IMG/VR virus record: IMGVR_UViG_3300042895_002216
DNA: 64,000 bases
Strand: one strand, 5' to 3'
DNA from: a virus
Lineage: Duplodnaviria; Heunggongvirae; Uroviricota; Caudoviricetes
Both the position numbers and the translations under genes were made by a program. Of the stretch, positions 18,742 through 59,245 are shown piece after piece. The notes below the pieces were generated by a model that was not told where the DNA came from, made no database searches, and saw only the letters and a program-made list of their open reading frames with translations. Each line of letters begins with the position of its first letter. The first letter of the stretch is position 1.

Positions 18742-20083
18742 AACAGTAACTGAATACTTAGATCAGGACTATGCGATGTACGGAATGTACACGTTAGAAA
18801 ACCGGGCAATTCCTTCTGTAATAGATGGTTTCAAACCTACTCAGCGTAAAATCATTTATATCTCAGATAAAGTCTGGAAATCAGGCAATGAAAAGCCATT
18901 AAAGATATTCCAGTTAGGTGGTAAGATCGCAGCAGATGCCCACTACCATCACGGTGACGGGTCTCTAAATGGTGCAATCATTGGGATGGCTCAGTCATTT
19001 AAGAATTCATTACCTCTTCTTGACGAGATAGGCCAGTTCGGATCTCTAAGATCTCCTGAAGCTGGTGCGGCTCGTTATATTTCAACTAAACTTACTGGAA
19101 ATTTTAGACTTCTTTACAAGGATTTTGAATTGCTTGAGAATCAAGTCGAAGAAGGAAATACGATTGAACCTAAATTCTTCTTGCCAATTATCCCAACCGT
19201 TCTACTAAACGGAAGCTCAGGTATTGCAGTAGGATTTGCCACTAACATATTAAATCGTAATCCATTAGACTTAGTAGACTCATGTCTTAAAGTATTAGAT
19301 GGCAAGAAAATAGGCAAACTGCTTCCATGGTGGAGAGACTACATTGGCCCAGTCGAGTCAGTCGTTGGAACTAACCAGTACATTATGCGTGGAGTATACG
19401 AAGTTCTGAATACTACTACTGTCAAGATTACAGAGCTTCCGCCATCAATGACTTTTCAGAAATACGAAGTTCATTTGAATACTCTACAAGATAGAGGAAT
19501 TATTGTTTCGTACGATGACAATTCTTCAAATGGAATCAACTACACTCTTAAATTTGCAAGAGCTACACTAGCTGACCTAATTGGAAAAGGCCGGCTCGAC
19601 CAAACCCTTAAGATGATTGAGACTGAAACTGAGAACTTAACCTGCTTAAATGAAAAGGGCAAGCTTGCAATCTTTGAGGACATTACTCAAGTGGTAGATT
19701 ACTTTGTAAACTTTAGATTAAGTTTCTATGATAAACGCAAAGCATTCTTAATCAAGAAGTACGGTGAAGAATTAATTTACTTATCGAACCGAGCTAAATT
19801 CATTAAGCTTATTATTGATGGTAAACTTAAAGTAAATAACGTTCCACGTAAAGAGATCATTCTCTACCTGCAAACGGCAGACTTCGACGAAGTTAATGGA
19901 TCGTATAACTACTTACTCAACATGCCAATCCACTCTCTGACTAAAGAAACTTACGAGCAATTATTGAAAGAAGTTGCTGATATTAAATCGCTATTAGTCG
20001 ATATTAAAAAGAAGGATCCAACTGAGATGTATCGAGAAGATTTATTTGAGCTAAAGAAAAACCTAAAGTATTCTTCAAAGTAA
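18722..20083 (+). CDS. type II DNA topoisomerase DNA-cleavage subunit (T4 gp52 / GyrA N-terminal homolog)
   Basis: RAIPSVIDGFKPTQRKIIY (GyrA-like). Candidate active-site Tyr in AARYISTKL. Confidence 0.8.
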   Translation: MTHVKNKTVTEYLDQDYAMYGMYTLENRAIPSVIDGFKPTQRKIIYISDKVWKSGNEKPLKIFQLGGKIAADAHYHHGDGSLNGAIIGMAQSFKNSLPLLDEIGQFGSLRSPEAGAARYISTKLTGNFRLLYKDFELLENQVEEGNTIEPKFFLPIIPTVLLNGSSGIAVGFATNILNRNPLDLVDSCLKVLDGKKIGKLLPWWRDYIGPVESVVGTNQYIMRGVYEVLNTTTVKITELPPSMTFQKYEVHLNTLQDRGIIVSYDDNSSNGINYTLKFARATLADLIGKGRLDQTLKMIETETENLTCLNEKGKLAIFEDITQVVDYFVNFRLSFYDKRKAFLIKKYGEELIYLSNRAKFIKLIIDGKLKVNNVPRKEIILYLQTADFDEVNGSYNYLLNMPIHSLTKETYEQLLKEVADIKSLLVDIKKKDPTEMYREDLFELKKNLKYSSK

Positions 20084-21281: not shown

Positions 21282-22025
21282 TTAAAAGATATACTTTAAA
21301 AGAACTGACGCAGTTTCCTGAGAAGGATTAACTGAGTCTGTTATGTAATGAGGGTAACCTTGATAGCTATACGTATAAACTAATCCTATTTCTAAATTCT
21401 TTTTAATCTTAAGTGCGATTGTGTTTGTACTTCGCATGTTTAAATTATCTAGAAAAGAAACTTCTCTGCTTGAATAAATTGCTGGCTGAAATAGAGTAAC
21501 TGACGAGATCTTAATCAATCCGCTTTCGTAATTTGCTCTAAGTCTAGATGATGCTCTTACTGTAAAGTTATTATTTGAAACCTTAATGCTGGACCAAAAA
21601 TACTCTGGCAAAATTACTTCAGAGAAAACAATATCGAACTTCTTATTCTTGATAATTGATACGCCTAATCCCAAACCAGCTGAGCTTCGAAGATCTATTT
21701 TTCTCATGTATGATCTCTCATCTTCAGTAAATCCAATAACTTTAAACTTACCTATCTGTTTTGAAATATTTCCAGTCAAGTAGACTTCATTTTCGTACTG
21801 AGTCATTTCAGATTTTCCATACGCGGATTGCTTGCTCCAACGGTAAGTAGTATTTAGATTCCATTGATACGATCCAGTATCTCTTTTTAATTCAGCTTTC
21901 GTTGTAATACCAATTGCACTAAAGTTTCCCCTAGTTCCATCTCCTCCAACCGATATTGATTTTTTAATTTGACTAAATACAGGTAATGAGACTGTCAGTA
22001 ATAGTATCGTTAATATAAACTTCAT
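21282..22025 (-). CDS. secreted protein, possible outer-membrane beta-barrel
   Basis: Signal peptide MKFILTILLLTVSLPVFSQ. Alternating hydrophobic beta-strand-like pattern and a C-terminal aromatic residue. Confidence 0.45.
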   Translation of the reverse strand: MKFILTILLLTVSLPVFSQIKKSISVGGDGTRGNFSAIGITTKAELKRDTGSYQWNLNTTYRWSKQSAYGKSEMTQYENEVYLTGNISKQIGKFKVIGFTEDERSYMRKIDLRSSAGLGLGVSIIKNKKFDIVFSEVILPEYFWSSIKVSNNNFTVRASSRLRANYESGLIKISSVTLFQPAIYSSREVSFLDNLNMRSTNTIALKIKKNLEIGLVYTYSYQGYPHYITDSVNPSQETASVLLKYIF

Positions 22026-27614: not shown

Positions 27615-29537
27615 TTATTTTTTTATGATTTTAGTAGAGTTAATTTGATCAACTGCCTGTAAAGAAGCAACGTATAATCCGCTAGTTAACTGATTAATAT
27701 TGGAAGAGTATACGTATTTTCCAGCTGGCATGTCTTGATCAAGTATAACAAATTGTTCTGATCCGTTTAGGTCAACGATTACTAACTTAACCATTCCGCT
27801 ATTCTTAACTGAGAAGTCAAAGCTTATCTCTCCAGTAGTTGGATTGGGAAATGCGGTAATTTCAAAGTTATCCAATTGACCAGAAGGTCCAGCCATTTTA
27901 GCAACGATTAAGATGCCGTTTGCTGCGGTGATTGATAAATCCCTAGATTGATTGTCTCCTGAGAATTTTCTAGAAGTATACAAAGGCGATGCCTCCCAAT
28001 CAATTTGAGGTTTAAGTGCGATAAATCTCAATTTAAAAACTTCATAATTATCTGGAATCATGTAGCTTTTGTTAGCTGATGGATCGTAACCGGCCCATTC
28101 GATAATTCCGCCAGTTGGATTGAATGAAGACATCCACTGCATTGATTTAGCAGAGTTAGTAATGTCTTTAAATTCCAATAAGGTCTGATCGTATAACATT
28201 GCTAATTGAAGAGACGAAATATCCTTTCCTCCAGTTTTAACAGTAACCGGTATTTCTACTAGATTTCCTGAATTTACAGAAAGATTAGGAAGATTAACTT
28301 CAATTGAGCTCGTTGGAAAATCGTATTCAACTGTCATATCAATTACGTTTTCAGTTTGAGCTGGGGTTCCAGCCGGTGGATTGATCATTACTTCAATTGG
28401 CGTTAAACGAGCCATGTTGTAACCCGTACCGTTTGCATCTCCTGGAACAAGTACGTAATATTGAACTGAATCAGGTTGTCCTGGTAAAATGTCGTAGTAG
28501 AAGTTTGTTACTCCAGCATAAGTTGAAGTATAGTTAGTCGATGGAGATCCTGTGATTGTTGTGTATTGGGCAGCAGTAAAGAACTTAACATCCTCAACGG
28601 CATTAGGCCATTCAGTGAATCTTCCAGCAATTCTACCAAATACTCCGTATGCATCAGTTATTGTTACGTTAGTTGAACCGTTAACATCTGCTGTATAGAA
28701 GTCGAATCCGGAAGGAGTCGCTGACCCTAACACCCATTGATTAATTAATTGAGCATCTGCTGTTGATATAACGTTTCCTACCGTCATCGTATCACCTTTA
28801 ATTGCAAGGCGTACATCATAATAAGTAGTATCAATAATTTCGCTAAATGCAAAATTTCCACTTAGGTCAGTTACGTACGTATCATGAGTTCCCCAAGTAC
28901 CTCCAGCTTTTACCTTTTTCTCAAGAGCTAAAGTTAAGTTCTTTGCTCCAGTTCCAGTAACGTTTGTAAATTTACCATGGAAGTCTAAAGTAGGCTGTTC
29001 CCATACACCGCCGTAGCTATGCTTGCTTAGAGTAGTATCTAAACCTGTCTGAGATGCAGCGAGTGTAGTAAAAGAAGCTGCGCCACTAAACGTAAGAGCA
29101 CTGATTGAGGGTAACGCATAAAACGATGCAGCTGCAACGTGAGTAAAGGTTATTTCAAAGGTTTCACCGTCCGCTAGAGTATAAGTACTGCTGTTTCCAG
29201 TATACACTAATGAAAGGGTTACGTAACCGGTAGCATTACTATCTACTGACTGTAAATATAAGTTAGTAGGCGATCCAACTAGCGCAACTGATGCACTAGC
29301 AAATGCATCCTTATCGTAAAATATTCGAGTTTGAATACCTGTGTATTTTGAGATAGTTGCATTCTTTAGCGTGATTCTGGCTTTGGACTGACCTAGCGTA
29401 CTTGTACCAACTTGATATGTCGTATCAATGATTGTCCAAATTCCTGCGCCTGGGGCAGGAGGTCCACTTTGAGCATAAACTCCAGTAGAGAGTGCGCACG
29501 TGACTAGTGCGAATAGAATAAAGATTATTTTTTTCAT
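27615..29537 (-). CDS. secreted protein with type IX secretion system C-terminal sorting domain
   Basis: Signal peptide MKKIIFILFALVTCALSTGVYAQ. The last ~80 aa (FPNPTTGEISFDFSV..VKLVIVDLNGSEQFVILDQ..LTSGLYVASLQAVDQINSTKIIK) matches the Por secretion tail (T9SS CTD) pattern. Confidence 0.7.
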   Translation of the reverse strand: MKKIIFILFALVTCALSTGVYAQSGPPAPGAGIWTIIDTTYQVGTSTLGQSKARITLKNATISKYTGIQTRIFYDKDAFASASVALVGSPTNLYLQSVDSNATGYVTLSLVYTGNSSTYTLADGETFEITFTHVAAASFYALPSISALTFSGAASFTTLAASQTGLDTTLSKHSYGGVWEQPTLDFHGKFTNVTGTGAKNLTLALEKKVKAGGTWGTHDTYVTDLSGNFAFSEIIDTTYYDVRLAIKGDTMTVGNVISTADAQLINQWVLGSATPSGFDFYTADVNGSTNVTITDAYGVFGRIAGRFTEWPNAVEDVKFFTAAQYTTITGSPSTNYTSTYAGVTNFYYDILPGQPDSVQYYVLVPGDANGTGYNMARLTPIEVMINPPAGTPAQTENVIDMTVEYDFPTSSIEVNLPNLSVNSGNLVEIPVTVKTGGKDISSLQLAMLYDQTLLEFKDITNSAKSMQWMSSFNPTGGIIEWAGYDPSANKSYMIPDNYEVFKLRFIALKPQIDWEASPLYTSRKFSGDNQSRDLSITAANGILIVAKMAGPSGQLDNFEITAFPNPTTGEISFDFSVKNSGMVKLVIVDLNGSEQFVILDQDMPAGKYVYSSNINQLTSGLYVASLQAVDQINSTKIIKK

Positions 29538-32092: not shown

Positions 32093-32371
32093 ATGTTAAT
32101 TATAACAGACTATTGGGCTCCATGGTGCGGTCCTTGTAAAGTAATGATGCCAGCTATTTCAGAATTATCGGAACGATTTAATGTACCTGATTCTCAAATT
32201 GAGATTAGAAAGGTAAACGTTGACGAAAATCCTGAACTTGCCAGTAAATTTGGAATCAGGGGAATCCCTACTCTTATTTTTGTTAAAGACGATCAAGAAG
32301 TAAAGAGACTTAGTGGTCTTAGAACAAAGAATCAGATACTTGAAGAAATCGAAACAATACAAAATTCATAA
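32093..32371 (+). CDS. trxA: thioredoxin
   Basis: WAPWCGPCK active site and overall thioredoxin length (92 aa). Confidence 0.8.
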   Translation: MLIITDYWAPWCGPCKVMMPAISELSERFNVPDSQIEIRKVNVDENPELASKFGIRGIPTLIFVKDDQEVKRLSGLRTKNQILEEIETIQNS

Positions 32372-33054
32372 TGGAAATTACATTTATAAGTGATACACAT
32401 TGGATTGTATCTGATCCAGTTAATACAGAAGACCTAAATGATCTTCTGCCTGGAGGTCCTATCTTGGTCCACGCAGGTGATGTATCTGGGCGTGGAACTG
32501 AGCGTGAAATTAGAGTATTCCTTAAATGGTTTAGTTCACAACCCTATATGCATAAGATCCTAATTGCTGGAAACCACGACTTCTTTTTTGAGGTAGCAAA
32601 ACCAGAGGAGGTTCAGGCTCTGCTTGCTGAGTATCCTGGAATTACCTACTTAAATGATAGTGGCGTAACGATTGAGGGTATTAAATTCTGGGGAAGTCCA
32701 GTAACTCCATTCTTTCATAATTGGGCATTTAATCGATATGAAAATGAAATAGGTCCACATTGGGATCTTATTCCGGAAGGAATTGATGTTCTGATAACGC
32801 ACGGGCCTCCTCATGGAATCTTGGATAAAACTATCAGAGAAGGTTGGAGCGTTGGTTGTAAAAGTCTAAAGGCTAAGGTTGATCAAATTAAACCCCAAGT
32901 TCATGTATTCGGCCACATACACGAAGAGATGGGCCAAGTAGAAATAGGCGGTACTACATTTATTAATGCGTCAGTGGTCGATGAACGATATCGACTATGG
33001 CATAATCGCCCGCCAGTTATTAACGTTGAACCAAGATCAGAAAATTTAGTATAA
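32371..33054 (+). CDS. calcineurin-like metallophosphoesterase
   Basis: GDVSGRG, GNHDFF, THGPPHG and GHIHE metal-ligand motifs. Confidence 0.7.
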   Translation: MEITFISDTHWIVSDPVNTEDLNDLLPGGPILVHAGDVSGRGTEREIRVFLKWFSSQPYMHKILIAGNHDFFFEVAKPEEVQALLAEYPGITYLNDSGVTIEGIKFWGSPVTPFFHNWAFNRYENEIGPHWDLIPEGIDVLITHGPPHGILDKTIREGWSVGCKSLKAKVDQIKPQVHVFGHIHEEMGQVEIGGTTFINASVVDERYRLWHNRPPVINVEPRSENLV

Positions 33055-33865: not shown

Positions 33866-34564
33866 ATGTTAATTAAAAATCAAACGCCATACCTTGGCAA
33901 AATTCAGTTGAAGTTCGAGAGATTTCCTCACTACACTGGCAAAACTAAATTAAATAAGATCCACTTGGATCTGGGATTTACTAAGTTAGTAAGCCGAATC
34001 CGACCTGAAAGAGATTTGGAAGGTTGGGCTGTAAATCCTGAATGTATTAAACAAATTGAAGCAACTACTGGGCTAAAGGTAGGAGTTCATAAGTTCGGAC
34101 CAGACGATGAGTACTCATTACCCAATTCATGCATGAATCCAGACGGAGTTTACGTTGGATCAATTGAAGAAGGTTGGTGGTACTACAACAATGGCCTCAG
34201 AGCAACAAAGGGATCTCATCCTCATACTGCATGGAGTAAGAAGGCAAAGCAGTGGATTGGTTATTCTCACCGTGCTTCTTGTGCATTCGGAAAAGGCGAT
34301 AAACTATTTGATGCTAAATGGAAACCTGCTGAACAAGACCTTCCTCAATACGAAAAGTTCTACGGCAAGCACCTGGACTCGTATTATAAAGAGTGCGAAG
34401 AATGGGCAAAGAGTACCTCTGACCATAAAGCGTCAGAAGAAGAAATGACCCTTGCTGGTTGGGCAGTAGATCATATTCCTTTTAGACTACGTGGTGCTAA
34501 GACAATTCATTCGTATGAAGATGCTTACAAGGCAGCAGTTAACTTTGCAAAATACGTATCGTAA
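33866..34564 (+). CDS. hypothetical protein
   Basis: 232 aa, W/Y/K-rich. No clear motif. Confidence 0.5.
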   Translation: MLIKNQTPYLGKIQLKFERFPHYTGKTKLNKIHLDLGFTKLVSRIRPERDLEGWAVNPECIKQIEATTGLKVGVHKFGPDDEYSLPNSCMNPDGVYVGSIEEGWWYYNNGLRATKGSHPHTAWSKKAKQWIGYSHRASCAFGKGDKLFDAKWKPAEQDLPQYEKFYGKHLDSYYKECEEWAKSTSDHKASEEEMTLAGWAVDHIPFRLRGAKTIHSYEDAYKAAVNFAKYVS

Positions 34565-46383: not shown

Positions 46384-47052
46384 ATGAAAATTACATTACA
46401 GCCTCATCAGCGAATATGGTTCACGTCAGATACTCACTACAAACACTCAAATATTTGTAGAGGAACGTCTAATTGGCCGGCCGAGAGTAAGACCAGAGAT
46501 TTCGATACCCTGGATAAAATGAATGATACGATTGTTAACAATATCAATCACCTAGTCAGCGAAGACGATATTCTTTTCCACTTAGGAGACTGGTCGTTCG
46601 GAGGATTTGATAACATCCAGGAGTTCAGAGACAGGTTGCTCTGTAAGAACATTCATTTGGTTCTAGGTAATCACGACCAGCACATCGAGAATGACAAGGG
46701 AGGAGTCAAGGCTCTATTTGCATCAGTGAATCATTACGTTAGACTGGAACTTACTGTTCCAAACGTGCCGAACGAAATAAATCCAGCGAAGACTATTAAG
46801 AAAACGTTTGTGCTATGTCATTACCCAATCGCAAGTTGGCACGATATGAACCGTGGAGTAATTCAATTACATGGTCACGTTCACTTAGGCCCACACAATA
46901 AATTACATGCAGGTAAAGCAATGGACGTTGGCATGGACGGCAACTTCATGGACCCATATTCTCTTCAAGAAATCGCAAAGATTATGAGAGACCGTCCAGT
47001 TAAGTGTTTGGTTTTACCGAACGATCACCATGAAACAAACGAAGGAAGATGA
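46384..47052 (+). CDS. calcineurin-like metallophosphoesterase
   Basis: GDWSFGG, GNHDQH and HGHVHLG motifs. Confidence 0.65.
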   Translation: MKITLQPHQRIWFTSDTHYKHSNICRGTSNWPAESKTRDFDTLDKMNDTIVNNINHLVSEDDILFHLGDWSFGGFDNIQEFRDRLLCKNIHLVLGNHDQHIENDKGGVKALFASVNHYVRLELTVPNVPNEINPAKTIKKTFVLCHYPIASWHDMNRGVIQLHGHVHLGPHNKLHAGKAMDVGMDGNFMDPYSLQEIAKIMRDRPVKCLVLPNDHHETNEGR

Positions 47053-47486
47053 TACAGAATACACACAATAAAATCGGCGAGGGTAATCGACTCCTTGCGC
47101 AATTCATGGGAGGCACAATTGTCTCTAGTGAAACCTACGAAATGCCACACGGCTCAAACGGCAAAGGCGTCTTTGAAAAATGGGGTGGACTCTCTGGAAT
47201 TCCCAGTCACGATCAGGAATTGGCTGCACTTGGAATATTTAGATATGAAACCTCATGGAGCTGGATTTTTCCAGTAATCGAAAAGATCGAGAGTCTTGGT
47301 TTCTGCGTCAGCATTCACCGTAGAGGAATTCAAATTATTAAGTACGACAAGGATCGAAGATTTGAAGCGACTGACCTAATTATCGATGAAGACTTCTTAG
47401 ATGATTATTCTGGAGATGTTAAGCGAATTGCTGCATGGGACTGTTGCGTTTCTTTTGTTGACTGGTACACAAAGAGGAGCCAATAA
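47049..47486 (+). CDS. hypothetical protein
   Basis: 145 aa, ATGA-coupled. Confidence 0.45.
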   Translation: MIQNTHNKIGEGNRLLAQFMGGTIVSSETYEMPHGSNGKGVFEKWGGLSGIPSHDQELAALGIFRYETSWSWIFPVIEKIESLGFCVSIHRRGIQIIKYDKDRRFEATDLIIDEDFLDDYSGDVKRIAAWDCCVSFVDWYTKRSQ

Positions 47487-47872
47487 TGGAATTAACGGGA
47501 CCCTCTAAACTAGTAGTCGCATCCAGTCCAATACACGGACTTGGAGTATTCGCAACGCAATCTATTAGCCCAGGCGAGATTATTGAAGAATGTCATTTCA
47601 TAACATTCGATGCGACATCAGATGATCCTATTTTTAATGATTATCGATTCATAGTCGGCCGTTCTGAGAAATTAGGCTGCGTAGAGTATGGCGTTCTTCT
47701 TGGATTCGGAGGAATCTACAATCACAGTGAAACTCCAAATATAAATTGGAGACATGATACTGAAAAGAATTGTTTTACGTTCTTTGCACTAGTCGATATT
47801 AATCCAGGAGACGAATTGTGCTCGTATTACGGAGGGCCTGAATATTGGAAATCAATTGGTATGGAAATTTAG
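47486..47872 (+). CDS. SET-domain protein (putative protein-lysine methyltransferase)
   Basis: GLGVFATQSISPGEIIEEC ... YNHSETPNINW ... INPGDELCSYYG match the SET-domain core motifs (GxG, NHS..PN, ELxxxY) in a minimal ~128-aa protein. Confidence 0.65.
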   Translation: MELTGPSKLVVASSPIHGLGVFATQSISPGEIIEECHFITFDATSDDPIFNDYRFIVGRSEKLGCVEYGVLLGFGGIYNHSETPNINWRHDTEKNCFTFFALVDINPGDELCSYYGGPEYWKSIGMEI

Positions 47873-47946
47873 TATAATAACAAAGTAGTTAGCTAATCGG
47901 GCTAATGTAATCTCTATATTTTAATAATTAATAAAAACAAAAAAAA

Positions 47947-49380
47947 ATGACAGAAATCATCACATCATCACTTATGTACGGACTACCGGCCTTAATAGGG
48001 GTAATCGTATTTTTTTATGCACTATCTCTACGTCGAATCGTGCCAACTAACGTAGTCCACATCGTTCAACGAGGAGACAAAACTGTTTCCTATGGCGTAG
48101 GTAAAGGCTCTAACGTTTATTATGAGTGGCCGAAGTGGTTACCTAAAATCGGAGTTATGGTCAGATCATTGCCAGTATCTAACTTTGATATTGACTTAGC
48201 TAAATATTCAGCGTATGATAAGGACCGTGTCCCTTTCGTAGTTGACGTTAAGGCATTCTTCCACATTGCTGATACAAATAAAGCTGCCGAGAAAGTAGAA
48301 TCATTTGACGAGTTGAAAAAGCAGCTGGAAAATGTAGTTCAAGGAGCAGTTCGTTCTATTTTAGCAAAGTCTAAATTGGAGGAAATTATGGAAGAACGAT
48401 CTATCTTTGGCGAAAAATTTACTGAAAGTGTTAAAGTTGATTTATCTAATTGGGGAGTTGAGCCTATTAAAAATATCGAGTTAATGGATGTTAGAGATAC
48501 TGACGGTTCGAGCGTTATTCACCAGATTATGGCTAAGCGAATGTCTGCGATTGATATGGAATCCAGAACTGAAGTTGCTAAAAACACTAAATTGGCAGAG
48601 CAGGCGGAACTAACTGCTCAACAAGAAATTGATGTAACTAAAGCAGAAACTCAGAAAATTGCAGGAGAGGCGCAAGCTCAATCAATACAGGCAATCGGTA
48701 TTGCCAAAGCAGAGGCTACAAAAAAGGCAGGTATTGCAGAACAAGAGTCAATATCAGATATCGCTCAAGCTGAACGAGCTACTGCTGAACAGCAAATGGA
48801 GGTCGTTAAAGTTAATGAGATTAAGCAGGCTGAAATTGATAAGGAAAAGGCAATTATTGCAGCTGAGCAACAAAAACGCAAAACTGAAATTGACGCAGAG
48901 GCTAATAAATTTAGAATTGAGACTGAGGCTTCTGCTACACTTGAAGCACAGATCAAAAATGCAGAAGGTGTTAAAACTCTGGGCCAAGCAGAAGCAGATA
49001 TTATTAAAGCAAAGGGTATATCGCAGGCTGAATCCAAGAAAGCAATGGAGCTTGCTGGAGTAACTGCCCAAACAACCCTAGCAAAAGAGATTGGCGAAAA
49101 CAAATCTTACCAAGAATACTTGATCAAAATTAGAGAAGTTGAAGTAACTCAAGTAGTCGGAGTTGCACAATACGAATCGATGGCAAAAGCAATGGCTGGA
49201 GCTGACTTGAAACTATTGGTAAATAGTGGAGACGTACACTCAGGAATTGGCAAGTTAAGCGACCTATTCACAGCTAAAGGAGGTTCACAGATTAACGGGC
49301 TTCTTGAATCATTGAAACAGACACCTGAAGGTAAAGGCTTACTGGCTATGCTTAACAAGCTTACACCAGGCGCAGAATAA
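47947..49380 (+). CDS. SPFH/band-7 (flotillin-like) membrane protein
   Basis: N-terminal TM helix, SPFH-like region, then a long A/E/Q/K-rich coiled (flotillin-type) repeat region. Confidence 0.65.
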   Translation: MTEIITSSLMYGLPALIGVIVFFYALSLRRIVPTNVVHIVQRGDKTVSYGVGKGSNVYYEWPKWLPKIGVMVRSLPVSNFDIDLAKYSAYDKDRVPFVVDVKAFFHIADTNKAAEKVESFDELKKQLENVVQGAVRSILAKSKLEEIMEERSIFGEKFTESVKVDLSNWGVEPIKNIELMDVRDTDGSSVIHQIMAKRMSAIDMESRTEVAKNTKLAEQAELTAQQEIDVTKAETQKIAGEAQAQSIQAIGIAKAEATKKAGIAEQESISDIAQAERATAEQQMEVVKVNEIKQAEIDKEKAIIAAEQQKRKTEIDAEANKFRIETEASATLEAQIKNAEGVKTLGQAEADIIKAKGISQAESKKAMELAGVTAQTTLAKEIGENKSYQEYLIKIREVEVTQVVGVAQYESMAKAMAGADLKLLVNSGDVHSGIGKLSDLFTAKGGSQINGLLESLKQTPEGKGLLAMLNKLTPGAE

Positions 49381-49461: not shown

Positions 49462-50199
49462 ATGACAGCACCATTTGAATTTTACGAAGTAGGCGGAAAG
49501 GTAAGAGACGAGATCTTGGGACTTCAGTCCAAAGACGTTGATTACGTAGCCGTGCCGAAAGCAACTCTGCTTGAGGAATTTCCTGAGGCGGCTGATATGT
49601 TTGACTTGCTAGTTGACTACTTAACTCGTGAAAAATTCCAGATATTCCTGATCACCAAAGAATGTTACACAATCAGAGCAAAATTTCCAGACGGACATAA
49701 GTACCAAGGAGTTGCTGATTTTGTAATGTCTAGAAAAGAGACTGGATACGTGCCGTTTACCAGAACTCCGATCATTAAGCCTGGAACCCTATTCGACGAT
49801 TTACAGAGAAGAGACTTTACTCTTAATGCCCTGGCAAGAGAAGCGGACGGCTCGATCATTGACTACTTTGATGGGCTGACTCACTTGAAGCTTGGGCTAT
49901 TAGTAACGCCATTACCTTGCGAGGAAACGTTTCACGATGATCCTTTGAGAATCTTGAGAGCTATTAGATTTTCAATCACTAAAGGATTTACTATCCCTGA
50001 GGAAATGTCTCAAGTAATAAAGCACTACGATTACGAAGTTAAGATGTGTGTAGTATCAGCTGAGAGAATCAGGGAAGAGCTCTTTAAGTGTTTCAAACAT
50101 GACACTCATGCAACGATACTTAAGTTATCAGAGTACCCTTTCCTTATGGAATACATTTTTAGAACACAAATCTGGTTAAAACCAACAATGGAAGAATAA
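49462..50199 (+). CDS. tRNA nucleotidyltransferase (CCA-adding) head domain protein
   Basis: FYEVGGKVRDEILGLQSKDVDYVA is the polymerase-beta-type head-domain signature of class II CCA-adding enzymes. Only 245 aa. Confidence 0.7.
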   Translation: MTAPFEFYEVGGKVRDEILGLQSKDVDYVAVPKATLLEEFPEAADMFDLLVDYLTREKFQIFLITKECYTIRAKFPDGHKYQGVADFVMSRKETGYVPFTRTPIIKPGTLFDDLQRRDFTLNALAREADGSIIDYFDGLTHLKLGLLVTPLPCEETFHDDPLRILRAIRFSITKGFTIPEEMSQVIKHYDYEVKMCVVSAERIREELFKCFKHDTHATILKLSEYPFLMEYIFRTQIWLKPTMEE

Positions 50200-50753
50200 T
50201 GGAAGCAACAATAAATGGAAGAATAATGGAAGCAAAAATAAACTGGGTTCTAGACCAACATAGAGACACGAATCACATGTACGATAAGTACTTGCCTTAT
50301 GAATTTCATTTACGTATGGTCGTTGAAGTTGCAAAGAAATTTCAATCTTTAATTACGTATGAGAAAGATTTTGAGCATGTACTACTTGGAGCATGGGGCC
50401 ATGATCTTATTGAAGACACCAGAGTTTCATACAATGATGTTAAGCAGGCGCTTGGAGAAATGGCAGCAGATATTGTCTATGCGTGCTCAAACGAGAAAGG
50501 CAAGAGTCGTAATGATCGGGCTAACTACCGATACTACGATGGAATCAGAACAACGCCGTATGCGATATTCGTTAAGTTATGCGACCGAATTGCAAACGTG
50601 CAGTACTCAAAAATGTCTGGCAGCAGAATGTTCGAGATGTACAGAAAAGAAAATCCCGAATTCATGCAGCAATTAGGCTGGACGGCTGAAGAAAAATATC
50701 TTCATGAGTATGCCAATATGTTTGTATACTTAAGTAAATTATTCGAAGACTGA
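50199..50753 (+). CDS. HD-domain phosphohydrolase
   Basis: GAWGHDLIEDT is an HD motif. The protein lies immediately after the CCA head-domain gene, making a split two-ORF arrangement. Confidence 0.7.
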   Translation: MEATINGRIMEAKINWVLDQHRDTNHMYDKYLPYEFHLRMVVEVAKKFQSLITYEKDFEHVLLGAWGHDLIEDTRVSYNDVKQALGEMAADIVYACSNEKGKSRNDRANYRYYDGIRTTPYAIFVKLCDRIANVQYSKMSGSRMFEMYRKENPEFMQQLGWTAEEKYLHEYANMFVYLSKLFED

Positions 50754-50772
50754 AAATAAAAAAATTAATATA

Positions 50773-51975
50773 ATGGAAAATCAAAACAGCGTATGTTACA
50801 TTGGAAAAGTAACAGAAATCAAGGCAATCGAAGGAGCTGACAATATTGAGTTAGCGATCATCGGTGGATGGAATTGTATTACTAAAAAAGGACTACACAA
50901 GGCGGACGAATTTGTTATCATTGCAACAACTGATGCAGTTATTCCGGAAGAGTTATCCGAAAAATTGGGAGTAACCGGTTACCTGCGTAAGGGCAATCGA
51001 GTTAGAACAGTTAAGTTGAGAGGAGTTTACAGTGAGTGTCTAATCATTCCGCTTAATGTGCTTGAAGGTTCAGAAGAAATGAAGATCGGAGTTAGTAAAC
51101 AGCCTTGGGGCGATCAATTACAGTTGGGCCCTTATGACGATGCACTCGTTATTGAAGAAGGAGTTGACGTTAGTGAGATGCTTGGAATTTTCAAGTACGA
51201 ACCGCCAGTTAGACAGGTCCAACTTGCTTCAGGTAAAAAGGTTCGTTATCAAGACAATCCAAACTTTCATGTCTACTACAAGTTTCCTAACTTGAAAAAT
51301 GTTAGTGGAATGTTTACTGAAGAGGATATTGTGCAAATCACGCGTAAGATCCACGGTACGAATGCACGATACGGTATAGTTAAGAAGAATCGCTTGTCCT
51401 TCATGGATAGGATTAAAAAATTCTTTGGATTCGCCGGAGAGCTCTTTGAGTACGAGTACGTTTATGGATCTCATAATGTCGAGAAGGGTTCTGATTCTCA
51501 AGGGTTCTATTCAACTGATGTCTGGAGAACAATTGCCGAGAAGTACGATATCAAGAACAGGTTGCTTACCTTAGCAAAAACTAAAAATAGGATTGGTGAA
51601 CTTGGAGCTGGTATTGTAATTTACGGAGAAATTTACGGTGCAGGTATTCAAAAGAATTACGAGTACGGTCTGACTGATATTGAATTCGTTGGATTCGATG
51701 CCACAGTAAACGGCAAATACGAGTCCACTATTTACACTGAATTCCTTTTCAAAGAAGCGCTAGAGTTACCTCACGTTGGAGTCCTATACACAGGACCGTG
51801 GTCACAAGAGACACAAGACCAGTTCGTCTTTGGTAATATGATCAAAGGAACTAAGGTGCCGCATGAAGGCATTGTTATTAAGCACATAAGCGGTGAGCGT
51901 AATCGAGTAGCAAAGGTAATTAATCCAGACTATTTGATTTACGGAGAAAAGCACGATATTGGAGACTCACATTAA
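50773..51975 (+). CDS. ATP-dependent RNA/DNA ligase-family nucleotidyltransferase (RNA-ligase-like)
   Basis: Candidate motif I KIHGTN, motif IV EGIVIK and motif V-like VAKVINP in the expected order and spacing. Confidence 0.5.
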   Translation: MENQNSVCYIGKVTEIKAIEGADNIELAIIGGWNCITKKGLHKADEFVIIATTDAVIPEELSEKLGVTGYLRKGNRVRTVKLRGVYSECLIIPLNVLEGSEEMKIGVSKQPWGDQLQLGPYDDALVIEEGVDVSEMLGIFKYEPPVRQVQLASGKKVRYQDNPNFHVYYKFPNLKNVSGMFTEEDIVQITRKIHGTNARYGIVKKNRLSFMDRIKKFFGFAGELFEYEYVYGSHNVEKGSDSQGFYSTDVWRTIAEKYDIKNRLLTLAKTKNRIGELGAGIVIYGEIYGAGIQKNYEYGLTDIEFVGFDATVNGKYESTIYTEFLFKEALELPHVGVLYTGPWSQETQDQFVFGNMIKGTKVPHEGIVIKHISGERNRVAKVINPDYLIYGEKHDIGDSH

Positions 51976-51989
51976 TAAAACAAATACAA

Positions 51990-52463
51990 ATGGAAGAAGA
52001 AAAATTACCGATCAGAATCTATTTAGATGACGTTCGAACACCAATTGAACAGGACTGGATAGTTGTTAGATCATACCAGGAGTTCAAGGACAAGGTGATG
52101 GAAATTGGATTAAAGAACATTCACATGATCTCATTGGATCACGACTTGGGTGACTCAGCTATGTCAGAGTACTTCACGAATGTAAGTCCTAACTATAAGC
52201 TAGACTACACGAACATTACTGAAAAAACTGGAATGGATTGCACTAAGTGGTTGGTGAATCAGTTCTACGACGAGAATCCAAAGAGAATTGAGATGAGTCG
52301 TTTCGATAAGCGTAATGTGCCGATTCGGTTTCCAGCAGTCTACGTACACTCAGCGAATCCAATTGGATCAGCGAACATGATGGGTTACATTAATAACTTC
52401 TTCATGAATGAGGGAGAACCTCAAAACTGCGTGAGAGTTCAGATACCTCACACGGTAATGTAA
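51990..52463 (+). CDS. hypothetical protein
   Basis: 157 aa. Confidence 0.45.
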   Translation: MEEEKLPIRIYLDDVRTPIEQDWIVVRSYQEFKDKVMEIGLKNIHMISLDHDLGDSAMSEYFTNVSPNYKLDYTNITEKTGMDCTKWLVNQFYDENPKRIEMSRFDKRNVPIRFPAVYVHSANPIGSANMMGYINNFFMNEGEPQNCVRVQIPHTVM

Positions 52464-53472: not shown

Positions 53473-53638
53473 ACGATTGTTAACACGCTTGCTTCGTGTT
53501 GAAATTGTCAGATAACGTGCAACGATAGTTTAAAGACTGTAGAAAAAGAAACACTGACTGGAAGGATTCTTATGGACGCATAAGAAGTAAAAGTCCACAA
53601 CTAAACCTACTTACAATTGGCAAGGTAAATTGAATTAA

Positions 53639-53666
53639 GGCGATCGATCTAACGGTCGCCTTTTTT
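53639..53666 (+). terminator. intrinsic terminator
   Basis: GGCGATCG-atctaa-CGGTCGCC followed by TTTTTT. TAGTATATTAG follows at 53667-53677. Confidence 0.65.
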
Positions 53667-53680
53667 AGTATATTAGACTT

Positions 53681-54424
53681 ATGAAAGTACTACACAAACA
53701 GGAGAATTCAAAGCTTATTAATTATGAGTTGTATGAAATCGCTCCAAAGATTTATGCAGTCTTGGCAAAGGACTCTTTTGAGAGAGCGATGCTCTTTCTT
53801 AGAGCACAAGAGTATTATGAATCCCCTTTTCCTGAATTTAGAGGACAGGACTTTGATATTTTTGTCTACATGAATCGTTACCGAAAAGAGAGATCAGCTA
53901 ACTATTTTAGTTACACAGCGGACTGGAGCGGATACAATGTTCCTAGCGAATCTCTTGAAGCCTGTATGCGAGGAGTTTATCAGTATCATACTGACATAAC
54001 TTCGTACGATCATGAAATGACAGAGGTTGTGTCTATTATTAGACAGTACCAGAAAAAAGGTAAGTTCTATCTACTTGGAGTCGATTCATTGGAATCAAGA
54101 GTAATGGATCATGAATTTGCTCACGGGCTATTCTATACAAATAAGGCGTATAAAACCGAGATGATGGAGTTAGTATTATCTTTAAAGCGAGATCTATACG
54201 AACAGCTTGAAAGCTACTTGATTCAAATCGGCTACACAAGCCACGTAATCGCGGATGAGATTCAGGCTTATATGGCGACAGGATTAACGGCAACGATGGC
54301 AAAGACCAGAGGCTCAGTTACGGCAGCTAAGAAATTCGAAAAGATATTTAAGAAATACAAGAAACAATATGGCAAACACGATAATATCAATAACCCTAAA
54401 CGACAAGCAGCAGAAAAAGTTTGA
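53681..54424 (+). CDS. hypothetical protein with HExxH motif
   Basis: MDHEFAHGLFY is a zinc-peptidase-like motif. Likely leaderless. Confidence 0.5.
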   Translation: MKVLHKQENSKLINYELYEIAPKIYAVLAKDSFERAMLFLRAQEYYESPFPEFRGQDFDIFVYMNRYRKERSANYFSYTADWSGYNVPSESLEACMRGVYQYHTDITSYDHEMTEVVSIIRQYQKKGKFYLLGVDSLESRVMDHEFAHGLFYTNKAYKTEMMELVLSLKRDLYEQLESYLIQIGYTSHVIADEIQAYMATGLTATMAKTRGSVTAAKKFEKIFKKYKKQYGKHDNINNPKRQAAEKV

Positions 54425-54558
54425 TGCTTGGGGTAAGCACCTAAAAGCCCTGTTTGGCGAATGGGGAAACTTAACCTGGACAGTATCATCATGTGGAATC
54501 GGAGACACAATCACTGTCACTAGCAGCAATGCACCAAAACATCCATTAGACTTAACTG

Positions 54559-54867
54559 ATGTCGGTAGCTGGTAAGGAACGTTGCGACTGCGGAAAGATC
54601 GCAACTTGGTGTTACGGGCCAGGTTATAGAGATGGAGGTAATCCAAATTCATGTGATGATTGTGTCTCTCGTGGATGTGATTGTAATCACAATTACGTTA
54701 GTGTAAACTCGTATCATCCACCACTAGACTCACCTAATTTACCGGAAGGCGAAGAGGGAGTTGACTGGAAGTGGATTAAAGCTGATAAAGTTTGGTGCTG
54801 GATTGATGAGCGCGGTAGAGAATATCCATGCTGTGAGTACGACTACATAATAGGATCAGAAGATTAA
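54559..54867 (+). CDS. Cys-rich small protein
   Basis: Several CxxC/CDC motifs. Confidence 0.4.
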   Translation: MSVAGKERCDCGKIATWCYGPGYRDGGNPNSCDDCVSRGCDCNHNYVSVNSYHPPLDSPNLPEGEEGVDWKWIKADKVWCWIDERGREYPCCEYDYIIGSED

Positions 54868-54878
54868 TTAAACGAAAT

Positions 54879-55259
54879 ATGAGAATAGCAGTAATTGCAC
54901 ACGATAATAAAAAGGCGGACATGGTGGCATTCATCATGAAGCGTCTTGATTTTTTTAAGCAGCACGAGGTTGTTGCAACTGGTACGACCGGTACTCACAT
55001 TGAGCATGCAGGTCTTGAGGTCGACCGAATGAAGTCTGGACCGCAAGGCGGAGACGCTCAGATCGCAGCAGAGTTAGTCAACGGTAAAATAGATGGAGTT
55101 ATCTTCTTTATTGATCCATTAACTGCACATCCGCATGAAGTTGACGTTCAAATGTTACTTAGATTGTGTAATGTGTATAATATTCCTATTGCAACGAACT
55201 ATTCGACTGCAAGCTTGTTGATACAGGCAGTTTCTTCTAAAAATAACAACGATAAATGA
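54879..55259 (+). CDS. mgsA: methylglyoxal synthase
   Basis: RIAVIAHDNKK, ATGTTG, SGPQGGDAQIAAELVNGKIDGVIFFIDPLTAHPHEVDVQMLLRLCNVYNIPIATN align residue-by-residue with bacterial MgsA, including the catalytic His/Asp positions. Confidence 0.75.
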   Translation: MRIAVIAHDNKKADMVAFIMKRLDFFKQHEVVATGTTGTHIEHAGLEVDRMKSGPQGGDAQIAAELVNGKIDGVIFFIDPLTAHPHEVDVQMLLRLCNVYNIPIATNYSTASLLIQAVSSKNNNDK

Positions 55260-56992
55260 GTAAACTCACACGGGACTTTGAAGAGTTCATAAAAGGTAAA
55301 CATCCGAGCATTGAGTTTAGACCTCAGCAAAAAGAAGCGATAATCGATATTATTTCAGCATACGAAGAAGACCATAATGGAATTTATCTACTTGATGCGC
55401 CGACTGGATCAGGCAAGTCAGTTATCGCAATGTTATTTGCTGATTTTCTTGCATTTAAGGGAAATCGCGGCTATATCTTAGCATCTGACCTCTCTCTTCA
55501 TGAACAATACGTCAAAGATTTTAAAAAGTTGCAGGTATGGAATTGGGGTAATATAAAAGGTGTTGATAACTACCGATGCGTTGTGAACGACGAGAAATTT
55601 TCAGTCGGTGAGTGCAAGAGTAAAGGAACCTCTTATGAAAAGGCTGAATCTCTTCCGTGTTTCAAACAATGTGGCTACTTGACCTCAAGAAAAAAGGCAA
55701 TCAAGTCGCCAGTCTCTCTGTTAACCTATCCATACGCCCTGATTCAACGAAATTACGTTGAGCAAAATCAGCAAGGCAACGGTAAGGGCTCCCCATTTCC
55801 ACAAAGAGATTTTGTAGTATGCGATGAGGCCCATAAGCTACTTGATATTGTACAGAGCCATTTCAGTCCAATCGTTTCGCATGAAATTGTTAAAAAGACT
55901 GAGAGCTTAATTGAAAGCACCGGCGATATTGGCCAAAAGATACCACAAGTGGACACTGAACGATTAGCAAAAGTGATTGATATGATTTACGAACAGGAGG
56001 ATCATGGCAACTTGCTTAAATTACTTAAGGAGGTTACTAGACTCTTGAGCATTGCAGTTCAGGCAACCTCTTCGCTTAGAGAAAATGCATCAATTGAATT
56101 TTTAGAGGGCAGCATTCCATCCGAATGGTTGGCTGTCTTTGGCATGGCGGACTGGTGTAAGGACGTTCACTGTAAACTAGAAGACTATTGTAAAATCATT
56201 GAACAAGTAGGTCTTGAGAAGCTCGTAAAGAATCCTGGCGAAAAGTCAATCACATTCAACTGTATCGATGAGTACTACCTATTACAGAAACACTTCTTTA
56301 CGAAATTTGGATTCAAGTTACTGATGACTGCTACAATGGGCAGTCCCAGCGATTTCATGAGAAATCACGGAATCAAGAAGGCTAAGTACTTTAAGATTGA
56401 AAGTCATTTCAATTGGGAGAAGTCACCTATCATTTTCTATCCAGGTAAAAAAATGTCAACCAGATTCCTACAAGAGAATCTACAATGGGCAATTGATTCA
56501 GTAACCAGAATAGTCAGGGAGAACTCTGAGCACTCCGGAATCATTCATTCAGGTTCTTATGAATTGAATACTAAGATCTGGACAGGTCTTCCCAAAGATG
56601 TTAAGAAACGCATTGTTCTCTATAAAGGATCTGAAGAGAAAGAGATCGCGCTAAAGATAATGAAGAAGAAGAAGGCAATGGTACTGATGGGTCCATCTAT
56701 TCTTGAAGGCTTGAACATGGTTGACGACCAGAGTAGATTCCAAATCTTCTTAAAGGTTCCGTACCCTCATCTCGGCGACAAGTACGTTGCTGCTAAATTG
56801 GAATACAGCCAGCAATGGTACAATTGGAAGACCTCAATCGCTGTCCTGCAAGGAGTAGGCCGCTCAATACGTACACCTGAGGATTGGGCGGTGACTCATC
56901 TACTTGATGGATGTTTCGCAGACCTAATGAAATCCGCAGGTGATCAATTCCCACCTGACTTCAAAGCGAGATTGCGAATAGAGTATAAATAA
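55256..56992 (+). CDS. SF2 DEAH-box helicase, DinG/Rad3-like
   Basis: Walker A LLDAPTGSGKS. DEAH box VVCDEAHKLLD. C-terminal motif VI LQGVGRSIRT. Confidence 0.7.
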   Translation: MSKLTRDFEEFIKGKHPSIEFRPQQKEAIIDIISAYEEDHNGIYLLDAPTGSGKSVIAMLFADFLAFKGNRGYILASDLSLHEQYVKDFKKLQVWNWGNIKGVDNYRCVVNDEKFSVGECKSKGTSYEKAESLPCFKQCGYLTSRKKAIKSPVSLLTYPYALIQRNYVEQNQQGNGKGSPFPQRDFVVCDEAHKLLDIVQSHFSPIVSHEIVKKTESLIESTGDIGQKIPQVDTERLAKVIDMIYEQEDHGNLLKLLKEVTRLLSIAVQATSSLRENASIEFLEGSIPSEWLAVFGMADWCKDVHCKLEDYCKIIEQVGLEKLVKNPGEKSITFNCIDEYYLLQKHFFTKFGFKLLMTATMGSPSDFMRNHGIKKAKYFKIESHFNWEKSPIIFYPGKKMSTRFLQENLQWAIDSVTRIVRENSEHSGIIHSGSYELNTKIWTGLPKDVKKRIVLYKGSEEKEIALKIMKKKKAMVLMGPSILEGLNMVDDQSRFQIFLKVPYPHLGDKYVAAKLEYSQQWYNWKTSIAVLQGVGRSIRTPEDWAVTHLLDGCFADLMKSAGDQFPPDFKARLRIEYK

Positions 56993-56996
56993 CTCT

Positions 56997-57581
56997 ATGA
57001 AACACCTTAAACTATACGAAGAATTTGATCTTGACAGATTCCTAGACAATCCAGAAAAGGAATTAGCTGATGACAATTCACCAGAGATCAATGTAGGAAA
57101 TTACGTTGACTCATACCGAGGTAAAGGCCAAGTGCTTGATATCGATAGCGATTTTGCAAAAGTTGAATTACATAACTCAAAAGGCAATATTGTTAAAGTT
57201 CCAGTTTTTGCTCTAACTAAAATATCTCACGAAGACCTAACTTCAGCCAAGGTCGGAGATTCTCAAGCTGAACTTGCGGAGCTAGTGAGTCAGGCCAGAC
57301 AGTACAATGATTACCTTGACTCAACTGAAGATTATGATAACGAAGATGAAGAGGATGGAGTTTACTCAGCAAGTCAGGTAAATTTCGATACCCTACTAGC
57401 ATATATTCAAGATACAACGATCGATGTTATCTCTATTAAAAATAACGATAGTGCATACGATACCTATTCAGAATATCACGAACTGATTAATTTAGTCGGC
57501 TCAATCGCTGGAGCAATTCAGAGAGCAAGACCGGACTTAATGGATGAAGTTGATGCAGCACTAGACAATTTCCCAGGATAA
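56997..57581 (+). CDS. leader-family acidic protein
   Basis: MKHLKLYEEF leader. TATAAATAAC at 56984-56993. Confidence 0.6.
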   Translation: MKHLKLYEEFDLDRFLDNPEKELADDNSPEINVGNYVDSYRGKGQVLDIDSDFAKVELHNSKGNIVKVPVFALTKISHEDLTSAKVGDSQAELAELVSQARQYNDYLDSTEDYDNEDEEDGVYSASQVNFDTLLAYIQDTTIDVISIKNNDSAYDTYSEYHELINLVGSIAGAIQRARPDLMDEVDAALDNFPG

Positions 57582-58912
57582 TGAGACTTAAACGATTTAC
57601 ACAATTCGTTAATGAAAATACTGATGATGCTGAAGAATTAGCAGCATTAGGTTTTAATTCAAAGATTGACACGGATGAAATTCAAGGATTAATGGCCGAA
57701 TACAACCCAGAGGAGAAGACCGACACGACATTAGGTTTCGATTTGGGATTTGATATGACAGCTGATGATTTAGGACTTGATCCAGAAAGAGCAGAGGCTG
57801 CTGAATTAGATAGCGTGTTCCTTGTTCAGTACTATGTTGATTTCGACTTTGAGACAATGAAATCTAAAGTACAAGTGGCAGTCTTAAATTCTGGGATTGA
57901 TTTTGACGGTGCAGGTAATGCGTATGAAGTTGATTTTAAACTGGATTCAGAAAATCACGATTCTCAAGGAATCGCTGATGAGTTAACTCAGATTTTGCAG
58001 CGAATTGAATACGAAGGCATGTTTGTAGACATGGCAGTCGATATAGTAAATGACATAATCGATAGACGTCTTGGAGAAGTATCAGAAAAGAAGAAACTTA
58101 AATGGCATGATTCTGATGAGCCTAACACAAAAGGAAAATTCATAATTGAGAACTTATCTGATGAAGAAGCTGCAGAACTAAGAGCAATGGGTTTTGGTGG
58201 AGTTGACACTGATGCAATCGCAGAACTAGTCAATGGAGCAACTGCAGAAGATCAAATCGTTATTGTTTCAGGCCAGTTCAATCAATCTATAGATGATTAC
58301 GGAATAGATTCATCCGAATATCCGGATATAGAAAGAGACGTATGGACTGATTTTGAAGTCAGAATAAACTTTATCGATGAAACTGTTAAGTCGTCAGTTA
58401 GTGTCGCACAAAAAGATATCGGACTTTACGAAGATGCTGAACTTGAAGACTATGAATGGTCTGACCTATTCCAAAATGGAGATCCAGTTTCAATGAAGTC
58501 TAATGAGATAGCTGAAGATATTGAACTCTTTATGAGTGCCGTAACTGGTTTCGAAGACTCGCTTGGAATGTACGACAAAATTCAAGATCTTTTAAATAAG
58601 GCAATTGAGGAACAGTATCACAGATGGGATGACGAAGAAGATGATGAAGCTGATGAAGATGAAATTTCAGAAAAGAAAAAACTTAAATGGCACGATTCTG
58701 ATGCACCTGATGCAAATGGAAAATTCAGAGACCTTGGAGTTAATAAATTAGCGGATTGGTTAATCAGAACAAGAGGTGGTAACATGCAAAAGATTACTGG
58801 ATCGCTAAATCAACAAATTAATTTTAACAAGCGAAAAAATCCAAGTTATGCCAAGAAAATGGAGTCGACTCGGGAAGCAGTTAAAAGAAAATTAGCAAAA
58901 AGAAAAGAATAA
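57581..58912 (+). CDS. leader-family large acidic protein
   Basis: MRLKRFTQFVNEN leader. 443 aa, extremely D/E-rich with an internal duplicated EKKKLKWHDSD motif. Confidence 0.6.
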   Translation: MRLKRFTQFVNENTDDAEELAALGFNSKIDTDEIQGLMAEYNPEEKTDTTLGFDLGFDMTADDLGLDPERAEAAELDSVFLVQYYVDFDFETMKSKVQVAVLNSGIDFDGAGNAYEVDFKLDSENHDSQGIADELTQILQRIEYEGMFVDMAVDIVNDIIDRRLGEVSEKKKLKWHDSDEPNTKGKFIIENLSDEEAAELRAMGFGGVDTDAIAELVNGATAEDQIVIVSGQFNQSIDDYGIDSSEYPDIERDVWTDFEVRINFIDETVKSSVSVAQKDIGLYEDAELEDYEWSDLFQNGDPVSMKSNEIAEDIELFMSAVTGFEDSLGMYDKIQDLLNKAIEEQYHRWDDEEDDEADEDEISEKKKLKWHDSDAPDANGKFRDLGVNKLADWLIRTRGGNMQKITGSLNQQINFNKRKNPSYAKKMESTREAVKRKLAKRKE

Positions 58913-59021: not shown

Positions 59022-59046
59022 TGTAAGATAAGAAAACTTCTACTGA

Positions 59047-59078
59047 AAAGGCTTAGACTAACGTTTAAGCCTTTTTTG
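59047..59078 (+). terminator. intrinsic terminator between leader ORF and tRNA-Cys
   Basis: AAGGCTTA-gactaacgtt-TAAGCCTT followed by TTTTTT. Confidence 0.6.
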
Positions 59079-59161: not shown

Positions 59162-59245
59162 GGAAGAGTAATTCAGCTGGCGCTGGACCTAGTCTTGAAA
59201 ACTAGTGGTACCTTCGGGTATGGGGATCGATACCTCACTCTTCCG
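59162..59245 (+). tRNA. tRNA-Ser (TGA), class II, unusual T-loop
   Basis: Acceptor GGAAGAG/CTCTTCC. Anticodon arm CTAGT-CTTGAAA-ACTAG. Variable hairpin TACC-TTCG-GGTA. T-loop ATCGATA is non-canonical. Confidence 0.65.

Follow-up and report, generated by a model that had tools for sequence, protein, structure and literature searches.

The presence of mgsA in the genome of a large phage raises two questions: whether the gene encodes an active methylglyoxal synthase (MGS), and what a phage would gain from an enzyme whose product is toxic. The gene lies at 54879..55259 (+) in the 64,000-nt stretch of DNA analysed here (hereafter the window), whose source is a large T4-like (jumbo) phage; these 64 kb belong to a contig of about 271 kb. 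The ORF has an ATG start, encodes 126 aa and ends with GAT AAA TGA. The original prediction had described its product as an intact, phage-encoded MgsA carrying the catalytic His and Asp residues, had placed it directly upstream of a DinG-like helicase gene, and had raised the possibility of a recent acquisition from the host.

The three motifs named in that prediction are present as claimed, with AHDNKK at residues 7-12, GGDAQ at residues 57-61 and PHEVD at residues 85-89. The protein passed two NCBIfam equivalog models, NF003559 (173.4 bits against a cut-off of 84, residues 1-122) and TIGR00160 (166.5 bits against a cut-off of 146.9, residues 1-123), and scored 59.6 bits against the Pfam MGS family (PF02142). 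It also matched 11 distinct sequences of solved MGS structures, with E values from 3e-36 to 7e-29. The active site was examined in a MAFFT alignment of the window protein with 84 viral and 66 cellular homologs, in which E. coli MgsA, whose sequence was checked to be identical to that of PDB 1b93, served as the numbering reference. The claim of an intact enzyme was borne out, as all 18 active-site and phosphate-pocket positions checked against E. coli MgsA are kept in the window protein and in the 84 viral homologs. In E. coli numbering, H19, D20, K23, T45, G46, T47, T48, S65, G66, P67, G69, G70, D71, D91, P92, H98 and D101 are the same in every viral sequence, and R107 is likewise constant among the viral proteins and in 65 of the 66 cellular ones. 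The catalytic residues of the window protein, H8/D9, D59, D79, H86 and D89, correspond to H19/D20, D71, D91, H98 and D101 of E. coli and are invariant in the 84 viral and 66 cellular homologs; Asp71 is the catalytic base. The phosphoryl pocket is formed by K12, T34, T36, T37, S53 and G54 (Lys23, Thr45, Thr47, Thr48, Ser65 and Gly66 in E. coli), all invariant across the viral clade. MGS is a homohexamer whose active sites are formed where subunits meet, and the interface residues Pro92 and Arg107 (E. coli numbering) are conserved as well.

An AlphaFold2 monomer model of the phage protein (pLDDT 82.7, pTM 0.76) was compared with the PDB using Foldseek. The top 26 matches were all MGS structures, with TM scores of 0.79-0.83, rmsd of 1.8-2.5 Å and identities of 45-54%. 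The MGS-like domains of CarB and PurH (ATIC) have the general alpha/beta fold in common with phage MgsA, but they are parts of large proteins, do not carry the MGS catalytic set and matched the model only with E values of 9e-5 or worse, TM scores of 0.55-0.7 and 16-20% identity. Substitution of a catalytic Asp or His, as in a CarB/PurH-like domain, was found neither in the window protein nor in the 84 viral homologs. An inactive MGS-like domain of this type was rejected on the basis of the stand-alone 126-aa ORF, its intact catalytic set and the low identity to CarB and PurH. From its sequence and its modelled fold, the protein is very probably an active, phage-encoded methylglyoxal synthase (EC 4.2.3.3).

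Phage MgsA belongs to the short form of the enzyme. It is 49% identical to E. coli MgsA and conserves its active-site residues, but it does not have the C-terminal extension of about 25 residues which bears Arg150 in E. coli; the alignment has a gap at this position in the window protein and in 80 of the 84 viral loci. The absence of the tail is not disqualifying for an MGS, since the solved short forms 1wo8, 2x8w and 6f2c are tail-less too, and Bacteroidota MgsA is likewise a short form of 124-125 aa. The short cellular enzymes (Bacillus subtilis 6f2c, Thermus 1wo8 and 2x8w, and those of Flavobacterium and Ekhidna) resemble the phage protein in length (124-137 aa) and fold, and their catalytic and phosphate-binding residues are identical to those of phage MgsA, while overall they share 50-54% (solved short forms) or 53-60% (MgsA of Bacteroidota) of its residues. 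Unlike them, the phage copy resides in a lytic-type T4-like phage, falls into a phage-only clade and is embedded in a helicase/accessory block rather than among housekeeping genes. It also carries six clade-specific residues (R22, L23, F25, F26, H40 and Y108), which never vary within the phage clade, occur seldom or not at all in cellular MgsA, and lie outside the active site. In E. coli, Arg150 forms a salt bridge with Asp20 of the adjacent subunit. This inter-subunit bridge sharpens phosphate cooperativity, and the tail-less Thermus MGS still shows cooperative phosphate inhibition, with a Hill coefficient of 1.5 (PMC4133812). Lacking the Arg150 tail, the phage enzyme is expected to respond to phosphate less strongly or less cooperatively, as the Thermus enzyme does.

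The gene is located inside a co-directional block (53681..58912, +) with strong terminator-like hairpins on both sides. The upstream boundary is a hairpin with a 10-bp stem and a T-run (53637..53662, +), after which the first gene encodes a 247-aa protein (53681..54424, +) conserved in relatives. It is followed by an ORF for a Cys-rich protein of 102 aa (54559..54867, +), which matches no Pfam or PHROG family and ends 11 nt before mgsA. As the original prediction had stated, a DinG/Rad3-type DNA helicase gene (55256..56992, +) is found directly downstream; its product matches Pfam Helicase_C_2, ResIII and DEAD as well as phrog_2488 (E 3e-98), and its ATG overlaps the mgsA stop codon by 4 nt (ATGA). 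Two acidic co-directional ORFs of 194 and 443 aa (56997..58912, +) close the block, the former being conserved 3' of the helicase gene in relatives, and a second hairpin with a 14-bp stem and a T-run (59045..59076, +) separates the block from a tRNA array. The shared orientation and the 4-nt overlap suggest co-expression, and mgsA and the helicase gene are probably co-transcribed and translationally coupled. There is no space within the block for an mgsA promoter of its own. A sigma-70 promoter scan returned 12 hits against 16.2 expected in shuffled sequence, with a consensus ill-suited to a Bacteroidota-type host. Both GC and GC3 of mgsA equal those of the neighbouring genes.

The phage origin of the locus, which had also been predicted, was upheld by phage genes on both sides of mgsA. 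They include split T4-type topoisomerase II subunits (14002-15837 and 18722-20083), an RNA ligase (50773-51975) and 27 tRNAs, 26 of them detected by ARAGORN and one by Rfam. Pfam searches further identified a CCA-adding enzyme, a cREC_REC protein and RmlC, and other ORFs of the window match tail-collar, phage-lysozyme, Acb1-like, Tad6, ClpP, SmpB and sigma-factor families. When a 10-kb segment was compared with GenBank phages by megablast, only tRNA-sized matches were obtained. Of 61 ORFs, 4 are preceded by a Shine-Dalgarno motif, where chance alone would give about 9.7, and the leaders are A-rich and G-poor. A T9SS C-terminal sorting domain, a hallmark of Bacteroidota, is present together with a Cohesin domain on a 640-aa protein (27615-29537, -), and SusC-like Plug proteins are encoded by related phages. 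Based on the missing Shine-Dalgarno signal, the T9SS domain and the Plug proteins of the relatives, the host probably belongs to the Bacteroidota.

In IMG/VR, at least 124 contigs encode relatives of this MgsA, many of them 200-373 kb in size, and identities range from 60 to 87% among the best 80 of the 124. The best 120 matches in a collection of 5.8 billion proteins were all 68-100% identical, and an identical MgsA protein is present on a public contig of 271,408 bp. Where the surroundings of homologs were inspected, on contigs of 27-373 kb, they resembled phage DNA, with dense small unannotated ORFs, and contained ClpP, ThyA, T4_Y16D, I-TevI-type homing endonucleases and RNase HII; the high-identity homologs lie in phage contexts on contigs of 129-373 kb. 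One viral sub-group (L055-L080) has only mgsA in common with the window. The member of this sub-group that was inspected, L056, encodes a T4 alpha-glucosyltransferase and a B-family DNA polymerase, and is T4-like on these grounds. Among 185,579 species-representative genomes, the nearest cellular MgsA proteins were those of Ekhidna (60% identity) and Flavobacterium (53-55%). In a neighbour-joining tree, the viral MgsA sequences formed one clade, sister to Bacteroidota (Ekhidna/Flavobacterium), with bootstrap values of 86% for the viral clade and 76% for viral plus Bacteroidota sequences. The latter grouping is backed by a one-residue deletion at E. coli position 55, which is common to 86 of 86 viral-type and 24 of 24 Ekhidna/Flavobacterium sequences and was seen in no other sampled cellular MgsA.

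Only one cellular-labelled sequence was nested in the viral clade, on a 1.9-kb contig from a 'permissive' MAG bin. This contig (L088, CBFHOD010000112.1, from a 'Flavobacteriaceae bacterium' MAG) carries an mgsA 96% identical to those of the viral contigs of the L056 group and is probably a phage fragment mis-binned into the MAG; such mis-binning would link the L056 phage group to Flavobacteriaceae.

Pairwise dN/dS within the main viral clade had a median of 0.10, with dS often saturated, and was 0.05-0.09 between the window and its nearest relatives, a pattern which indicates that mgsA is under strong purifying selection in phages. The viral monophyly, the shared deletion, the low dN/dS and the neighbour-like GC point to an old rather than a recent acquisition from a Bacteroidota-like source, followed by diversification within phages. 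The suggestion that the closest homologs would reveal a recent transfer from the host thus held only in part: the nearest cellular sequences are indeed from Bacteroidota, but an identity of only 53-60% to them and an old phage-specific clade contradict a recent acquisition.

Curated resources contain little on phage MgsA: no family was found in PHROGs v4 and no MGS structure in BFVD. A tblastn search against 50,697 GenBank phage records gave 22 matches of at most 54% identity, all unannotated and mostly on short records, the longest being 102 kb. Two of these records, OR848172.1 ('Listeria phage LM 4-14-1') and MT835478.1 ('Bacteriophage sp.'), are both flagged UNVERIFIED. Their mgsA neighbourhoods, dapB-mgsA-cca-birA-panB in one and PBP2-minD-rodA-mgsA-dacA in the other, consist of housekeeping genes, and both were rejected as phage mgsA and regarded as bacterial chromosome fragments. 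The two inspected GenBank 'phage' mgsA records thus represent bacterial contamination, while the genuine phage clade has so far been seen only in metagenomes. Literature searches turned up no work on the function or evolution of phage mgsA, and only a mention of the gene at table level. In a Lake Baikal virome, mgsA was located on a 120-kb T4-like scaffold which recruited up to 8.8% of the reads, and it was listed as an abundant auxiliary metabolic gene in these oligotrophic viromes (PMC8066274).

The position of mgsA was then compared among 17 relatives anchored on the helicase gene. In 8 of them the tight mgsA-helicase junction is preserved, the two genes overlapping or lying no more than 18 nt apart, and in the remaining 9 mgsA is absent within 5 kb of the helicase gene. 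The Cys-rich ORF is conserved 5' of this variable slot in relatives with and without mgsA alike. Where mgsA is missing, the slot between the Cys-rich ORF and the helicase gene is occupied at six loci by homologs of two window ORFs located elsewhere (16199-16909 and 16872-17576); two further relatives (L163 and L165) have neither mgsA nor these homologs in the slot, and another (L169) has a wholly different neighbourhood upstream of the helicase gene. In other sub-lineages, mgsA is directly followed by one of two Metallophos paralogs or by cREC_REC, and these genes recur at positions +1 and +2 from mgsA across sub-lineages. The window homologs of the two Metallophos paralogs are at 32371-33054 and 46384-47052. 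The former (+) encodes a metallophosphoesterase matching an MPPED2-type cyclic-nucleotide phosphodiesterase (PDB 3rl4, E 4e-41), and this MPPED2-like protein may degrade cyclic-nucleotide immune signals; in several related phages it is the ortholog of this gene that comes immediately after mgsA. Given its varying neighbours and its absence from the slot in 9 of 17 relatives, mgsA behaves as a conserved yet movable cassette, set in an accessory region with many tRNA, RNA-repair and counter-defence genes.

Known auxiliary metabolic genes (AMGs) of central carbon and phosphate metabolism include talC, zwf/gnd, phoH and pstS of cyanophages. Like these, phage mgsA encodes a host-derived metabolic enzyme kept by phages under purifying selection; unlike them, its expected product is a toxic electrophile, an uncommon feature among AMGs. 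The gene has a cellular homolog, is bordered by phage genes on either side and recurs on 124 IMG/VR contigs, and together with the signature of purifying selection these features indicate that mgsA is most likely an AMG, predicted to convert DHAP into methylglyoxal and phosphate. The MgsA reaction sets phosphate free from DHAP; phosphate at 0.3-0.5 mM inhibits the enzyme, which is regarded as important when phosphate is limiting (PMC11850910). In the phage, mgsA would be expressed with the early/middle replication genes, and its product would convert dihydroxyacetone phosphate to methylglyoxal and inorganic phosphate in the infected cell, topping up the methylglyoxal bypass of the host. The intact phosphate-binding pocket, and the fact that tail-less MGS is still controlled by phosphate, lead us to expect phosphate gating, and the enzyme would presumably be active chiefly at low phosphate and high triose-phosphate levels. 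The benefit would be that phosphate trapped in sugar phosphates is freed and carbon flow is kept up while a genome of about 270 kb replicates in phosphate-poor water, with methylglyoxal being a tolerated by-product in a cell soon to lyse.

The data do not discriminate between the proposed physiological roles. Phosphate release, or an overflow valve for triose phosphates, is favoured over a role of the toxic electrophile itself, the benefit being one that we infer. As the answer to the question of physiological role, phosphate release with relief of sugar-phosphate accumulation is preferred tentatively, with slightly less than even confidence; the abundance of related mgsA-bearing phages in the oligotrophic waters of Lake Baikal fits this view. 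Several observations count against it. No PhoH, PstS or other phosphate-regulon gene was found in the 64-kb window. The genes that recur beside mgsA encode phosphoesterases, cREC_REC, RNA-repair and counter-defence proteins, not enzymes of central metabolism, and mgsA is dispensable at the helicase position. Among 55 further window ORFs and in the precomputed Pfam annotation of the flanks of relatives, neither a phosphate-regulon gene nor a glyoxalase came up, so that methylglyoxal is not visibly detoxified. MGS opens a branch of glycolysis that, unlike any other, gives up ATP yield in return for immediate release of phosphate, at the cost of a toxic product. The enzyme itself is ordinary; what deserves attention is its long-term retention despite that product by a large group of environmental jumbo phages, which adds a node to the host pathways rewired by viruses. 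A small enzyme of known chemistry also provides a means to test phage control of phosphate and triose-phosphate pools against the use of a reactive metabolite.

The same chemistry could have been selected for a different benefit, with methylglyoxal itself as the effector that arrests host growth or macromolecule synthesis, damages or excludes co-infecting phages, depletes low-molecular-weight thiols or blunts a host defence. As a strong and toxic electrophile, methylglyoxal modifies both DNA and protein (PMC12096831; PMC11850910), and no glyoxalase accompanies mgsA. In related phages the gene occurs among Tad6, MPPED2-like phosphodiesterase, cREC_REC and RNA-repair genes, in a swappable cassette of the kind often seen for anti-defence genes. 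This shuffled accessory-region neighbourhood is, however, weak evidence, and methylglyoxal would also harm the replicating DNA and the proteins of the phage itself. Moreover, the fully kept phosphate pocket argues for normal metabolic gating rather than for a deregulated toxin, and the literature searches revealed no defence system against which methylglyoxal or a depletion of DHAP is documented to act. We regard a primary effector role as unlikely, although it is the main rival. The more specific proposal that phage MgsA is an early weapon of T4-like jumbo phages of Bacteroidota, acting as a counter-defence generator of electrophiles or as a DHAP drain, appears doubtful. If it were true, the enzyme would serve host shut-down, competitor exclusion or the disabling of an immune pathway, maybe together with the phosphoesterase and cREC proteins, and the six clade-specific surface residues would mark an interface with a phage-specific regulator or partner.

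These residues, being clade-invariant and rare or absent in cellular MgsA, could instead reflect neo-functionalisation, in which the protein retains its fold but acts on another phosphoester substrate or serves as a ligand-binding or regulatory module, perhaps tied to the adjoining phosphoesterase, cREC or RNA-end-processing genes. The recurrence of the Metallophos paralogs and cREC_REC at +1/+2 would fit this idea, as would the use of the MGS-like domains of CarB and PurH as ligand-binding modules. Yet the clade-specific residues lie away from the active site, where every substrate-contact and catalytic residue of E. coli MGS is invariant in phage MgsA. The equivalog-level models were passed, and the identity is 45-54% to characterised enzymes against 16-20% to CarB/PurH. 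This complete active-site conservation makes a changed substrate unlikely, and neo-functionalisation as a whole is very improbable. It could also be argued that the gene is not a phage gene, but host DNA introduced by mis-assembly or mis-binning, or a recent host passenger without function, as the bacterial neighbourhoods of the two UNVERIFIED GenBank records might suggest. In the window, however, mgsA is bordered by phage genes at a distance of 11 nt upstream and with a 4-nt overlap downstream. Its composition matches that of the phage, and independent assemblies show the same arrangement. The best cellular match reaches only 60% identity, and the phage sequences form a deep clade on which purifying selection acts. 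Contamination or a recent passenger is refuted by these observations and retains hardly any probability.

Several other features of the window were recorded. The 27th tRNA (59162-59244, +), which was missed by ARAGORN, scored 47.9 bits against the Rfam tRNA-Sec model (gathering threshold 47 bits). A tRNA-Sec was rejected, as its anticodon UGA is that of Ser and the sequence aligns with a tRNA-Ser(tga) at the same array position in a relative (L002). An RNA-repair/tRNA-maintenance set, consisting of a CCA-adding enzyme, the RNA ligase with a PHA02142 OB domain, cREC_REC and an AAA_33 Pnk-like kinase, is encoded at 49462-52463 and 41806-42222 (+), adjoining the tRNA arrays. A gene at 6981-7403 (+) encodes SmpB (PDB 7ljp, E 1.4e-35). 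No tmRNA was found in the 64-kb window, but in two relatives one is located about 1.1-1.5 kb 5' of mgsA (L003, 6500-6989; L016, 6439-6910), and the phage lineage appears to supply its own trans-translation system.

Two potential counter-defence proteins were also matched: a Tad6-like inhibitor of type I Thoeris (33866-34564, +; E 5.5e-22) and, weakly (E about 2e-5), an Acb1/2H-phosphoesterase encoded by an ORF within 1-21103 (+). Surface or secretion-type proteins comprise the Cohesin/T9SS protein described above, a GLEYA/PA14 adhesin-like protein (40240-41109, +) and a DUF481 outer-membrane-type protein (21282-22025, -). Pfam counts for the ORFs in 1-21103 and 40240-49380 included sigma-70 region 2/4 (ECF-like), SET-domain, PRPP-synthetase-like, Band_7/SPFH, ClpP and 4HBT thioesterase matches, as well as two family-2 glycosyltransferases. 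Phage-encoded anion transporters are unusual; between the topoisomerase II subunit genes, an ORF at 17599-18741 (+) encodes a 380-aa protein with 11 predicted transmembrane segments, which is probably the source of a Pfam match to Sulfate_transp (SulP anion permease, E 9e-40).
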